Shown here in pieces: positions 5,646 to 22,348 of a stretch of 64,000 nt of DNA (positions within the stretch are counted from its first letter, which is position 1; the number at the start of each line of letters is the position of its first letter). The notes below the pieces were generated by a model. The model ran no database searches and had not been told where the DNA came from. It saw only the letters and a program-made list of their open reading frames with translations. The position numbers were made by a program, and so were the translations under genes. The stretch spans positions 1 through 64,000 of IMG/VR virus record IMGVR_UViG_3300032315_001657. One strand, 5' to 3'. The stretch is from a virus.

Positions 5646-5686
5646 TTTTAGTAACTTTTAAAGGCCTGTTCGTATAAATATAATAT

Positions 5687-7759: not shown

Positions 7760-7834
7760 ATGAAGCATACAGATACACGCTTGAACATGGCTATTTCGGG
7801 TCTTTCCGGGACCTGGACACCATGTTCTATATAA
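7760..7834 (+). CDS. leader peptide of tRNA array 1 (MKHTDTRLNMAISGLSGTWTPCSI)
   Basis: 24-aa ORF whose TAA lies in attenuator segment 2; contains codons for every elongator amino acid of array 1. Confidence 0.7.
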   Translation: MKHTDTRLNMAISGLSGTWTPCSI

Positions 7835-7898
7835 GCGGGTATCATAATTTTTTAACTTGATAGACCCGCTGAACTCAATAAAATGAGCAGCGGGTTTT
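7772..7898 (+). promoter_or_regulatory. transcription attenuator (protector/antiterminator/terminator)
   Basis: seg1 GATACACGCTT 7772-82 : seg2 AAGCGGGTATC 7833-43; seg2 : seg3 GATAGACCCGCT 7859-70; seg3 ACCCGCTG : seg4 CAGCGGGT 7888-95 + TTT. Confidence 0.7.
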
Positions 7899-7994
7899 AA
7901 ATTCTAAAGGCCTTTTGGAAAGTGAGCCTGAATCACTGAAACAACCACCGTGAATCCGTGGGTACAGAAATGTAGAGGTGTAGGTTCATAAAAA

Positions 7995-8155: not shown

Positions 8156-8230
8156 GCACCAGAAGCTAAACGGCTAGGCATTGGTCTGCAAAACCTTTAT
8201 TAGTCAGTTCGACTCTGACCTGGTGCTCCA
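8156..8230 (+). tRNA. tRNA-Cys(GCA)
   Basis: loop CTGCAAA; U73 and encoded CCA. Confidence 0.88.
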
Positions 8231-9102: not shown

Positions 9103-9173
9103 GCCGCAGTAACATAAAAGTAATGTGTTAGTCTTCCAAACTAAAGAACTCGGGGCAGTACCGTGCTGCGGCA
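9103..9173 (+). tRNA. tRNA-Gly(TCC), non-canonical D/T loops
   Basis: TTAGT-CTTCCAA-ACTAA; T loop GGCAGTA; no D-loop GG. Confidence 0.75.
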
Positions 9174-18912: not shown

Positions 18913-19668
18913 ATGAATAAAAAAAGTTTAAATTTGGATATGTCAACTAGTGGCTATACGAATTTAGCAGGTATAGCTACTCTTTATAATGAATTTTTTT
19001 CTCGGCATGATTATAGATGGTGGTATGAGGTACACCCTGGAGATATTGTTGTGGATGTTGGTGGTTGTATTGGTATGTTTACCTGTTTAGCTTTAGATAG
19101 CGGTGCAAGTAAAGTTTTTACAGTAGAACCTAATCCATCCCTCGCAAAAACTATTCTCAAAAATGCATCAATACACATTTTTAATAAAAAAGACTCACCT
19201 GTAACTATTATTAATAAAGCTATTGGTACTGACAGTACTTATTTTAAACACATATATGGTAATAAATATATGAACTCAAATGATATTGGTGCTGAATTAA
19301 CTGAAGAAGAATTTAATGCTTTAGAGCTAATATCCTTTAAAGAATTTATAAAGCAATACGACATTAAGCATATAGATTATCTTAAGATAGATTGTGAAGG
19401 TGGAGAGTTTGATATTTTAACTGCTGAAAACCTTGATTTTATAAAAAATAATGTAAAGCATATAGCTGTAGAGTTTCATATAGGGGCTTTTGAAGATGGC
19501 CCAGAAAGATATAATAAATTTAAAGATACTTTTTTATCTCAATTTGATAAAAGTAAAATTAAGTTTTTAAACTCTGAAGATTATGAAAAAGCTTTTAATA
19601 TAGACTGGACAAAACGACAAGAGGGATGGAGAACAAGTGTCTTTATGATATACATATGTAATTTTTAA
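18913..19668 (+). CDS. FkbM-family methyltransferase
   Basis: VVDVGGCIG, VEPNP, YLKIDCEGGE. Confidence 0.85.
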   Translation: MNKKSLNLDMSTSGYTNLAGIATLYNEFFSRHDYRWWYEVHPGDIVVDVGGCIGMFTCLALDSGASKVFTVEPNPSLAKTILKNASIHIFNKKDSPVTIINKAIGTDSTYFKHIYGNKYMNSNDIGAELTEEEFNALELISFKEFIKQYDIKHIDYLKIDCEGGEFDILTAENLDFIKNNVKHIAVEFHIGAFEDGPERYNKFKDTFLSQFDKSKIKFLNSEDYEKAFNIDWTKRQEGWRTSVFMIYICNF

Positions 19669-19734
19669 AAAATTACTAAAGAAATTAAACTTTATATTTG
19701 CAATACCTTATTAATACAATAAATTTATAGTGTT

Positions 19735-19848
19735 ATGAAATACATCCTACTCGCAGTTTTGGTAGTCTCTGCTGTTATGACTACTGCTTGTGCCTCTAAA
19801 AAAGAATGCACACCATGTAATAAAACTGTCGTCACCACGACTAAATAA
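19735..19848 (+). CDS. small lipoprotein (not in ORF track)
   Basis: MKYILLAVLVVSAVMTTA-C signal with lipobox-like Cys. Confidence 0.55.
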   Translation: MKYILLAVLVVSAVMTTACASKKECTPCNKTVVTTTK

Positions 19849-19853
19849 TAATA

Positions 19854-19907
19854 ATGTTTTATTACATACAAAACGAAAATAATAGAAAACCTCCCTTTAC
19901 GGGCTGA
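19854..19907 (+). CDS. leader peptide of tRNA array 2 (MFYYIQNENNRKPPFTG)
   Basis: 17-aa ORF 6 nt after TAAATA; first 12 codons cover all 8 anticodons of array 2; TGA lies in the antiterminator arm. Confidence 0.75.
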   Translation: MFYYIQNENNRKPPFTG

Positions 19908-19962
19908 GTTCTTGATTCGTTTTGTTTTGAGACCCGGCCCTAAAAAGCCGGGTTTTCTTTTT
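19868..19962 (+). promoter_or_regulatory. transcription attenuator (protector/antiterminator/terminator)
   Basis: ACAAAACGAA 19868-77 : TTCGTTTTGT 19916-25; GGGCTGAGTT 19901-10 : GACCCGGCCC 19931-40; terminator GAGACCCGGC/GCCGGGTTTT + CTTTTT. Confidence 0.75.
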
Positions 19963-19996
19963 GATCTTTGATAGCTTTAATCTTAAATAATTTTTC

Positions 19997-20078
19997 GGGT
20001 AGATCGCATAGTGGCAATTGCCGGAGACTGTAAATCTCCTCTCATTAGAGTTCGTAGGTTCGAGTCCTACTCTACCCA
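19997..20078 (+). tRNA. tRNA-Tyr(GTA)
   Basis: GGAGA-CTGTAAA-TCTCC; variable arm. Confidence 0.92.
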
Positions 20079-20091
20079 TATTTTAATAATT

Positions 20092-20162
20092 TGGCTCGTA
20101 GTGTAATGGTAACACCAGAGAATTTGGATCTCTTAATCATAGTTCGAGTCTATGCGAGCCAG
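20092..20162 (+). tRNA. tRNA-Gln(TTG)
   Basis: AGAGA-ATTTGGA-TCTCT; U1:A72, G73. Confidence 0.88.
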
Positions 20163-20205
20163 TTTTTAGTTGCACAATTTAAAAGATTCCGACATAATAA
20201 CAACA

Positions 20206-20379
20206 ATGAAGCTTTTAAAGCAGCCCTGGGAAAAATATGGCATAACCGAAATGGCATATTTAATGGCTTACACACAGGGATACCAAGGGGCATTTAGATC
20301 TCCTGACACCACCTATAAGCATGGTACAGTACTTAGAAAAATTTATAATAAAGGAAGAAGAGAGGCTAAACAATATTAA
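20206..20379 (+). CDS. hypothetical protein inserted in tRNA array 2
   Basis: MKLLKQPWEKYG...; TTGCAC...CATAAT promoter-like element upstream. Confidence 0.5.
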   Translation: MKLLKQPWEKYGITEMAYLMAYTQGYQGAFRSPDTTYKHGTVLRKIYNKGRREAKQY

Positions 20380-20586
20380 TGAAATTAGACTTAGACATTT
20401 TATATGCTTTTGTACTCTGCATACTCATAGCTGTTTTTACAATTCAATCGCGAGAAATTAAAATTTTGCAAACTGAAATTAAAGAGCTTAGAATTATTGT
20501 TGATCAAAAATTCTTACCTCCAGTAAATACAGATAAAAATTTGTAATATGGAAGACTTTGACGGTTTAGGAATTTAATGAATTCTA

Positions 20587-20677
20587 GCTGGGTTAGTGTA
20601 ATTGGAAGCACCGACAGTCTTATAAACTGTGTGCCCTAGATGAGGGCCGAGCATGGGTTCAATTCCCATACCCAGCA
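20587..20677 (+). tRNA. tRNA with TAT anticodon (Ile) and long variable arm
   Basis: ACAGT-CTTATAA-ACTGT; GCCCT..AGGGC extra arm; A73. Confidence 0.8.
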
Positions 20678-20705
20678 TATTTTTTTTTTGATCTTTTACA
20701 TTTTA

Positions 20706-20778
20706 GGGGTGGTAGCTCAATGGTTAGAGCAGTCGGCTCATAATCGATAGGTTGACGGTTCGAATCCGTCCCGCCCCA
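20706..20778 (+). tRNA. tRNA-CAT (elongator Met or Ile2)
   Basis: loop CTCATAA; paired G1:C72, so not an initiator. Confidence 0.88.
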
Positions 20779-20785
20779 CATTTTC

Positions 20786-20857
20786 GGAACGGTAACTCAA
20801 TGGTAGAGTAGCGCCCTTTTAAGGCGTAAGTTCTGGGTTCGAGCCCCAGTCGTTCCA
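20786..20857 (+). tRNA. tRNA-Lys(TTT)
   Basis: GCGCC-CTTTTAA-GGCGT. Confidence 0.9.
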
Positions 20858-20876
20858 TATTAAATAGCTCTTTAAT

Positions 20877-20951
20877 ACCTAGGTAGCACAGCGGTAGTGC
20901 AGCGCACTGTTAATGCGCGGGTCGTTGGTTCGAATCCAACCCTAGGTGCCA
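20877..20951 (+). tRNA. tRNA-Asn(GTT)
   Basis: GCGCA-CTGTTAA-TGCGC; GCCA end. Confidence 0.92.
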
Positions 20952-20959
20952 TTTTAAAA

Positions 20960-21031
20960 GTCTCGTTCGTTCAAGGGATAGGACCGAAAACTTCTAATTT
21001 TCTAATGTAGGTTCGAGTCCTACACGAGACA
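20960..21031 (+). tRNA. tRNA-Arg(TCT)
   Basis: GAAAA-CTTCTAA-TTTTC. Confidence 0.88.
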
Positions 21032-21052
21032 TACATTTAAATATACAATAAC

Positions 21053-21124
21053 GTCGCCATCGTCTAACGGTTAGGACACATGGTTTTCATCCATGTAATC
21101 GGGGTTCGATTCTCCGTGGCGATG
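21053..21124 (+). tRNA. tRNA-Glu(TTC)
   Basis: CATGG-TTTTCAT-CCATG; G73. Confidence 0.9.
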
Positions 21125-21178
21125 CTTTATATTTTTAGTTGCCGGTCTATTAATCCCCTCTATACTTTTCATAACTCT

Positions 21179-22348
21179 ATGTCTAAAATTCAATTACCTA
21201 AAAACATAGGTCAAGGCAAACCAGCTAAAATTAAGGAAAATGTTCAGTATTTTGATACATCTCATCATGGTTCATTTTTTCCTTTTGGTGTATATTTCAC
21301 TACTACTCATGGAGTAATGCCTTCTACTATTCATATTAACAAAACGTATACAGAAGATTTAATTTTCTTTTTAAGAGAAAAAGGCGAAATCTTTCAAGAT
21401 CTTGTCTCTATTCCTGCAACTTCTCCTCGATCCATGACTCTTAGTATGTATCAAGATGACTTTGAAACAGAAGAGCCAGAATATAAAGGTACTTTCCTTT
21501 ATAAGGATTGTGTAATTAATTTTCAAAGAACACCTTCTCGTAAACATAAAAAGTCTGCTGAAACACCACCGCTTTTTACTATCTCAATTTATTATAAACC
21601 TGGTACTACACCTCCAGTAAAGGATTTTGATAAATTTTTATTTGAAGAAAAACTTAATAGTGTAATTCATACTATTTTTCGAGATGAGCACGGAGGAATT
21701 GTTTTTGAGCCTTTTGAAACTGTTGTACCTGAAGGTTATTCAGTAGAAAAATATTACACTAAAGACTTTCAACCGATTCATAAACATATTGTTGATACTC
21801 TTCAAAAAAATGAATCTGGGTTATACCTCTTTCATGGGGAGCCTGGAACTGGTAAAACAACTTATATTAAATACTTAGCAAGTGTTCTTAAAAGAGATGT
21901 AATTTATGTTCCGGTTGCTTTTATCGACTCTCTAGTTGATCCGTCGTTCTTACCAGCATTGCTTAAAAAGCGTCATTCGGTTCTTGTTATTGAGGATGCT
22001 GAAAAAGCCTTATTAGCTCGAGAGCCAGGCGATTCGTCCTCCCTTGTTTCAGCTATCCTCAATATAACTGATGGTATTATGGGTAATGTGTTTAGTATAT
22101 CGGTTATAGCTACTTACAATTCCCCTAGAGCAGGGATTGATAAAGCTTTGCTTCGTAAGGGAAGATTAAAGGGAGAGCATAAATTTGATAAACTTCCCGT
22201 AGAACAAGTTCAAAAAATTCTGGATGATAATAAGATTAATTTTACCGCTAAAGAGCCTATGTCCTTGGCAGAAATATTTAACACCCAAGAGCCCGACTCT
22301 TTGAATACTAAATCTTTAGTCGAAGAAAAAAGAATGGGCTTTTTTTAA
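21179..22348 (+). CDS. AAA+ ATPase (BCS1-like)
   Basis: GEPGTGKT Walker A, LVIEDAE Walker B, IDKALLRKGR; start moved out of tRNA-Glu. Confidence 0.85.
   Translation: MSKIQLPKNIGQGKPAKIKENVQYFDTSHHGSFFPFGVYFTTTHGVMPSTIHINKTYTEDLIFFLREKGEIFQDLVSIPATSPRSMTLSMYQDDFETEEPEYKGTFLYKDCVINFQRTPSRKHKKSAETPPLFTISIYYKPGTTPPVKDFDKFLFEEKLNSVIHTIFRDEHGGIVFEPFETVVPEGYSVEKYYTKDFQPIHKHIVDTLQKNESGLYLFHGEPGTGKTTYIKYLASVLKRDVIYVPVAFIDSLVDPSFLPALLKKRHSVLVIEDAEKALLAREPGDSSSLVSAILNITDGIMGNVFSISVIATYNSPRAGIDKALLRKGRLKGEHKFDKLPVEQVQKILDDNKINFTAKEPMSLAEIFNTQEPDSLNTKSLVEEKRMGFF

Follow-up and report, generated by a model that had tools for sequence, protein, structure and literature searches.

What leads phages to carry tRNA genes, and how the timing and dose of these genes are set, are open questions in the field, which take a concrete form in the stretch of DNA analyzed here (the window), which comprises the first 64 kb of the 75,108-bp virus record IMGVR_UViG_3300032315_001657. 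In this stretch, a 17-codon open reading frame (ORF), a long hairpin and an intrinsic terminator, together referred to as module 2, precede a cluster of eight tRNA genes, referred to as tRNA array 2, and the question is whether the module controls the array that follows it or belongs to the genes that precede it. An earlier note on this DNA had read the leader as a ribosome-stalling device that gates the array and acts as a counter-defence sensor of tRNA loss. The sequence points, at slightly better than an even chance in our judgment, to a trp-type ribosome-mediated leader-peptide transcription attenuator that would sense the decoding of array-2 codons. The source phage is uncultured and comes from freshwater; its DNA has a G+C content of ~34%, and the record is a fragment of a genome whose whole size is ~200 kb according to the CheckV estimates for related contigs. 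The phage collection yielded no close cultured relative, either via DNA or via the protein of the AAA ATPase gene that sits downstream of array 2.

Architecture of the Leader Region

The leader ORF reads exactly as the earlier note had quoted it, from the ATG at 19854 to the TGA at 19905-19907, and the in-frame TAA at 19842-19844 upstream makes this ATG the earliest possible start (the features are collected in Table 1). The helices reported around the ORF are borne out, comprising (i) a "protector" stem of 10 perfect pairs; (ii) the antiterminator 19901-10:19931-40, with 9/10 pairs (6 G-C, 1 A-U, and 2 G-U) and a single A-C mismatch; and (iii) the terminator stem 19929-38:19947-56, with 10 pairs (6 G-C, 2 A-U, and 2 G-U) followed by a U tract. 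All three exist, but they are not all mutually exclusive as had been claimed, since the protector and the antiterminator have no base in common. The direct competitor of the antiterminator is instead the inner helix of the long hairpin, clamped shut by the protector, which forms the 10-bp outer stem. The trp/his-type attenuator geometry itself is present and conserved, with the stop codon lying inside a strand, the 11-mer GGGCUGAGUUC, able to pair with the 5′ arm of the terminator.

The minimum-energy fold of the region comprises the long hairpin and the terminator (z = -5.0), and 0/200 shuffles fold as well. The duplex of GGGCUGAGUUC with the terminator 5′ arm is worth -14.0 kcal/mol, a value equalled by 11/2000 dinucleotide shuffles of the upstream region (P ~0.005). 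A cmscan search of 19000-21600, with E values up to 1, returned only tRNAs and chance-level hits and no match to an Rfam leader or riboswitch, including the His, Trp, Thr, and Leu leaders and the T-box.

The hexamer TAAATA located 5′ of the leader ATG is probably a gene-start signal or a phage promoter of the -10 type. The same hexamer lies 4-8 nt 5′ of the first ATG in 12/91 long ORFs, versus 0.3 expected, with examples at positions 5675, 15253, 17224, and 47918 of the window and 64856, 65267, 69820, and 72210 of the record, and the leader ATG shares its TAAATA-N6 start context with about a dozen real genes of the phage. The spacing looks like that of a -10 element yielding leaderless or near-leaderless mRNAs, and no Shine-Dalgarno sequence was found before those genes of this phage that were looked at.

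Codon Content of the Leader Reading Frame

The eight anticodons listed in the earlier note were confirmed by ARAGORN and Rfam, and each of the corresponding tRNAs has a cognate codon within the first 12 codons of the leader, a coverage of 8/8. The codon for Met(CAT) is present but comes as a free match, being the start codon. Cognate codons account for 10/16 sense codons and cover 7/7 elongator species of array 2. Across the 75-kb record, 8/8 coverage occurs in 2/2272 ATG-started 12-codon segments, the leader ORF being one of the two, and shuffling the 33 letters of the leader itself yields 8/8 in 231/200000 trials. Dinucleotide-preserving shuffles, counting open frames only, reach 7/7 elongator species in 87/17077 trials (P = 0.005) and at least 10 cognate codons in 209/17077 (P = 0.012), so that the match beats composition and dinucleotide controls alike. 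Five candidate ORFs lie upstream of array 2, only one of them with an ATG start, and the look-elsewhere factor is therefore at most ~5, giving a corrected P of ~0.01-0.03. For the count of cognate codons, every relative tested gives a dinucleotide-shuffle P of 0.002-0.025. The other reading frames of leader 2 cover 1-6 array-2 species.

Conservation of Module 2 among Relatives

Relatives were found in IMG/VR and the JGI metagenomes via the downstream AAA ATPase gene and via a DNA pattern derived from the element, yielding 12 homologous leaders, 11 of them distinct, all from close relatives. Both hairpins, the frame, the ATG, and the stop codon are kept in the 11 distinct homologs, the conservation on which the earlier note had made its proposal depend. 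Neither the ATG nor the GGC-TGA end varies, unlike the 4 nt preceding the ATG, and GGGCUGAGUUC is unchanged throughout. Two indels, of 3 and 6 nt, fall within the ORF, and those outside it are mostly of 1 or 4 nt. The terminator stem displays compensatory changes at two pairs and is paired in 97% of cells across the homologs; the corresponding value for the long hairpin is 85-91%, with the outer stem preserved despite a shift of register in L018 and L024. The peptide is poorly conserved outside YIQN, and codons 8-12 vary within the array-2 set (GAA/AAA, AAU/UAU/UAC/CAG/CAA, AAU/AUA, and AAA/CAA/AUA). A search for more distant homologs of the module, made via the upstream methyltransferase and via the tRNA-Tyr sequence, detected none; the methyltransferase led to relatives at 33-39% identity, without tRNAs.

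The effect of a ribosome on the competition between helices was modeled by folding each homolog up to the terminator loop, that is, before the 3′ arm is made, with the ribosome footprint removed. When the A site is set at codon 5 or 8, the terminator 5′ arm pairs with GGGCUGAGUUC in 11/11 homologs; at codon 12 this pairing is weaker in two of them, L020 and L011; and with the ribosome at the stop codon the arm never pairs with GGGCUGAGUUC. Codon 12, the last cognate codon, would be the point at which the 3′ edge of a stalled ribosome starts to cover G19901. Full-length minimum-energy folds always retain the terminator, even when the 5′ portion is masked, which is not decisive because classical attenuators are under kinetic control.

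The Twin Module before tRNA Array 1

The window displays a second unit of like design, the twin module, which is not homologous to module 2 and precedes tRNA array 1. This array contains 14 tRNAs, counting two that ARAGORN missed at default settings and Rfam found, Cys(GCA) at 8156-8227 and Gly(UCC) at 9103-9173. The stop codon of the twin leader abuts GCGGGU, complementary to the 5′ arm of the twin terminator, an arrangement that 29/2000 shuffles do as well. The frame of the twin ORF is preserved across four diverged lineages, one of them that of the distant relative G001, between which the middle of the ORF is unalignable; the distance from ATG to TAA is 72, 75, 75, and 78 nt, and each lineage has the long hairpin, the z values ranging from -5.8 to -6.9.

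Frame 0 of leader 1 covers 10, 12, 11, and 11 of the 14 array-1 tRNA species in the four lineages, with dinucleotide-shuffle P values of 0.07, 1e-4, 0.005, and 0.002, respectively. The other two forward frames are equally open, and thus provide an internal control for both composition and structure; they cover 3-7 species. One reverse-complement frame of the leader 1 of the window also reaches 10 species. Cross-coverage is low, leader 1 holding codons for 1-3 array-2 species and leader 2 for 1-2 array-1 species. That two unrelated leaders should each be fitted to their own array by chance or through base composition is hard to credit. The statistics of the twin are stronger than those of module 2, and it was the twin that moved the reading of module 2 toward an attenuator. 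Whether a separate leader-peptide attenuator controls each of the tRNA arrays of this phage, with about one codon for nearly every downstream tRNA, so as to form a multiplexed sensor of decoding capacity, we consider evenly balanced.

Besides, the 95 nt from terminator 1 to tRNA-Gly (7900-7994) are ~90% conserved even in G001; their predicted fold is weak (z = -1.2), and no Rfam family matches them above the gathering score.

Proposed Mechanism

We infer the translation of the ORF, the boundaries of the transcript, and the response to stalling from the sequence. The transcript would begin at or just 5′ of the ATG, with the TAAATA motif or the upstream operon as its source, and a ribosome would translate the 17-codon frame, with three possible outcomes. 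(i) Under smooth decoding, the ribosome would reach the UGA and cover GGGCUGAGUUC, the terminator would form, and transcription would stop ~35 nt before tRNA-Tyr. (ii) A stall at codons 3-12 (Tyr, Tyr, Ile-AUA, Gln, Asn, Glu, Asn, Asn, Arg-AGA, and Lys) would keep the 5′ half of the long hairpin open, and the freed GGGCUGAGUUC would pair with the terminator 5′ arm, allowing RNA polymerase to read through into the eight tRNA genes. (iii) In the absence of a ribosome, the long hairpin would sequester the antiterminator strand. The net effect would be a negative feedback fitting the supply of phage tRNAs to decoding demand, triggered by a shortage of any one tRNA. Such a supply-and-demand feedback on phage tRNA synthesis is more likely than a dedicated counter-defence sensor.

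Relation to Known Systems

The design of module 2 fits the trp/his/thr/ilv class of attenuators feature by feature, apart from the placing of leader and controlled genes on one transcript, a trait that module 2 may or may not share. The attenuators of enterobacterial amino-acid operons (trpL, hisL, leuL, and pheL, together with thrL and ilvGMEDA) likewise comprise a short frame, an intrinsic terminator, and a competing antiterminator, the strand of which is covered by the ribosome at the stop codon, as well as an anti-antiterminator that includes part of the coding sequence; in the thr and ilv leaders, several kinds of codon are read at once, as proposed for module 2. Compared with them, module 2 precedes tRNAs rather than biosynthetic enzymes, carries its regulatory codons once or twice rather than in runs, shows no sequence similarity, has a possible promoter-like bypass of the terminator, and is probably transcribed as a leaderless mRNA.

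T-box riboswitches, which control aminoacyl-tRNA synthetase and amino-acid genes by tRNA-sensing antitermination, also report the state of tRNA through a choice between terminator and antiterminator, but they bind uncharged tRNA directly, without a ribosome and one tRNA each, and module 2 displays neither T-box nor specifier-loop features. tRNA genes are textbook cases of control at the promoter and not by attenuation. In the tRNA cluster of phage T4, clustered tRNAs are transcribed as precursors, with small ORFs and small RNAs interspersed, and array 2 resembles it in its clustered tRNA genes interspersed with small ORFs. To our knowledge, no leader-peptide attenuator has been described for the T4 tRNA genes, and no account of leader-peptide control of tRNA genes, including those of T4, was found in the searchable literature; the paper on phage bS21 does not touch on promoters or on the control of tRNAs.

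The closest published case is the trn operon of Anabaena sp. PCC 7120, a long tRNA array that is silent until translation is impaired (PMC8421152) and thus, like the proposed behavior of module 2, an accessory array that rises when decoding is troubled. The control differs, since in Anabaena it lies at the promoter, where direct repeats are bound by the RHH repressor TrcR (PMC10272220), whereas a translated leader and a terminator are proposed here. Nowhere does the main text of the 2021 Anabaena paper (PMC8421152) use the words leader, attenuation, or terminator.

Counterevidence and Alternative Explanations

The first working view, a chance ORF beside an ordinary terminator, was dropped after the shuffle tests and the finding of the array-1 twin. 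Several observations weigh against an attenuator nonetheless, both those given here and the routes around the terminator described below. The module-2 homologs are closely related and therefore amount to few independent observations. The helix covariation seen in the terminator is lacking in the antiterminator, the 5′ strand of which never varies, and two antiterminator pairs, in the register of the earlier note, break in L018, L024, and L026, where other registers restore pairing. The full codon coverage of the window is not conserved: the Glu codon is gone (GAA to AAA) in 4/11 leaders, leaving a coverage of 6/7, and the tRNA-Glu gene is kept in three of these four relatives, the contig of the fourth, L010, ending at tRNA-Tyr. 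Conservation of the open frame was abandoned as a main argument, as frame +1 of leader 2 is also stop-free in most homologs; with this frame and frames +1 and +2 of leader 1 largely stop-free, reliance was placed on frame-specific codon coverage.

The alternative that survives best, although we regard it as unlikely, is that module 2 marks an operon end. The hairpin and terminator would finish and stabilize the upstream transcript (bS21, methyltransferase, and lipoprotein-like gene) and in relatives also insulate it from a convergent gene, the array would have its own promoter, and the short ORF with its codons would be a by-product of the A-rich hairpin arm in an AT-rich phage, the array-2 tRNAs of which happen to decode A-rich codons. 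The upstream gene context (Pfam) favors this explanation, and so do several routes into array 2 that avoid the module. The second TAAATA, a promoter-like motif named in the earlier note as a possible bypass, is present, and its position close to tRNA-Tyr means that the array may be transcribed without passing the terminator; it is kept in 3/6 homologs in which the terminator adjoins the array, the other three having different A/T-rich -10-like hexamers. In 5/11 relatives, the interval from the terminator to tRNA-Tyr holds a convergent gene of 55-73 aa and a TTGACA-17-TAAATT promoter. In G001, array 2 stands behind a coding gene and a TTGAAT-17-TAAAAT promoter, without leader or terminator, and the leader module is absent from ten further phage contigs (nine distinct contexts) with the same tRNA-Tyr. 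The claim that the array is "gated" is accordingly too strong, and the terminator is probably not the sole route into array 2. In addition, the array-2 codons (UAY, CAA, AUA, AAA, AAY, AGA, and GAA) are nearly all one-step mutational neighbors of AAA, so that an A-rich arm is biased toward them, a bias that the shuffles control only partly, and frame +1 covers 5/7 species.

An operon end, however, leaves much unexplained, including (i) the invariant ATG beside a variable spacer; (ii) the 3- and 6-nt indels confined to the ORF; (iii) the codon match, at a dinucleotide-shuffle P of 0.005; (iv) the significant complementarity to the terminator arm centered on the stop codon; (v) the gene-start motif before the ATG; (vi) the survival of the module in L020 and L028, from which the upstream lipoprotein-like gene has been lost by deletion, leaving only a short remnant; and (vii) the array-1 twin, the frame-specific coverage of which has P values of 1e-4 to 5e-3. 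These features and the folding behavior of the homologs favor a leader-peptide attenuator.

A stand-alone tiny gene is improbable. Here, the TAAATA motif would drive a structured RNA of ~105 nt that ends at its own terminator and plays no role in tRNA transcription, being either a regulatory small RNA, with a seed formed by GGGCUGAGUUC or by the conserved 5′ end, or the mRNA of a 15-17-aa peptide. The promoter-like motif and the terminator do bracket such a unit, its structure is conserved with one invariant 11-mer, and it is retained whether or not it adjoins the array. The peptide, however, is poorly conserved beyond YIQN, most substitutions altering the amino acid yet staying within the array-2 codon set; a small RNA needs neither an ATG nor indels in multiples of three; no Rfam match was found; and the codon match and the array-1 unit of like design are left without explanation.

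The ability of phage tRNAs to counter tRNA-targeting defences is established. The counter-defence function put forward in the earlier note, a sub-case of the attenuator that differs in what is sensed and why, is the least probable of the three, for although one codon per species suits an all-or-none loss of a tRNA to host anticodon nucleases (PrrC, or tRNA cleavage of the PARIS type), answered by switching on replacement tRNAs, better than graded starvation, for which classical leaders use codon runs, the sequence carries nothing pointing to defence, and the mismatch between the codon demand of a phage with 34% G+C and the tRNA supply of its host accounts for the same design.

Array Content and Neighboring Features

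Upstream of module 2, the gene order on the + strand comprises a phage bS21 gene, an FkbM-type methyltransferase, and a 37-aa lipoprotein-like ORF at 19735-19848 (Pfam context), the last with a signal-peptide-like start followed by Cys and terminated by three in-frame TAA codons directly 5′ of the leader ATG. The convergent gene of L010, L011, L014, L018, and L028 is conserved at the protein level and has its own TAAATA-N8-ATG start, and its patchy distribution suggests that it was gained or lost repeatedly.

ARAGORN had suggested that the content of array 2 varies, with relatives lacking Lys, Asn, Met, Arg, or Tyr, a view overturned by Infernal and inspection. The genes apparently missing are either odd tRNAs that were overlooked or a tRNA-Met that a group I intron interrupts. 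The content is therefore almost constant, which makes covariation between leader codons and array uninformative here. ARAGORN missed odd tRNA-Lys, Asn, and Arg genes of the relatives, and single-tool tRNA counts are too low in this clade. Group I introns (Rfam RF00028, 89-93 bits) are found at L011:6402-6618, L028:5115-5343, and L030:3972-4201, where they appear to split the array-2 tRNA-Met; the tRNA-Met of the window (20706-20779) is intron-free. The tRNA-Ile(UAU) at 20587-20677 is 91 nt in length and its variable arm is long (ARAGORN; Rfam 51.6 bits); it occurs at 98-99% identity in several relatives, and a 72-nt version is found in others. The motif TTTGATCTTT(G/T)A(C/T)A occurs at 19961-19975, after the terminator, and at 20687-20701, before tRNA-Met, as well as beside tRNA genes of unrelated phages (L052 and L055), and could be a promoter or a processing signal.

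Table 1. Features of modules 1 and 2 and of tRNA array 2 in the window
Feature	Position	Strand	Remarks
Twin module, non-homologous to module 2	7760..7900	+	Before tRNA array 1
Twin leader ORF, 24 codons	7760-7834	+	Lies inside long hairpin, z = -6.9
Twin terminator, strong	~7864-7894	+	5′ arm ACCCGC
TAAATA motif	19842..19847	+	6 nt before leader ATG; invariant in 11/11 homologs
Leader ORF, 17 codons	19854..19907	+	Codons 3-12 all read by array-2 tRNAs; UGA within predicted antiterminator strand
Long hairpin, predicted anti-antiterminator	19868..19925	+	Outer stem 19868-77:19916-25; inner helix 19884-95:19901-12
Invariant GGGCUGAGUUC	19901..19911	+	3′ arm of inner helix, holds stop codon; predicted antiterminator strand, pairing with 19931-40
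Intrinsic terminator	19929..19962	+	10-bp stem, 8-nt loop, U tract
Second TAAATA motif	19984..19989	+	7 nt before 5′ end of tRNA-Tyr; possible bypass promoter
tRNA array 2	19997..21125	+	Tyr(GTA), Gln(TTG), Ile(TAT), Met(CAT), Lys(TTT), Asn(GTT), Arg(TCT), Glu(TTC)
Two small ORFs inside array 2, between Gln and Ile	20206-20379, 20379-20546	+	–

Implications

If the attenuator reading is true, trp-type attenuation would extend to tRNA genes, a use for which no published account was found, and this phage would possess a simple, self-contained feedback that makes its tRNA synthesis self-correcting, in the form of a multi-input sensor of tRNA shortage. The loss of any single tRNA to a host defence would likewise trigger the device. 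The design is small, ~110 nt, and directly testable in reporter or cell-free systems, and it would offer a new handle on how phage tRNAs, codon usage, and tRNA-targeting defences interact.

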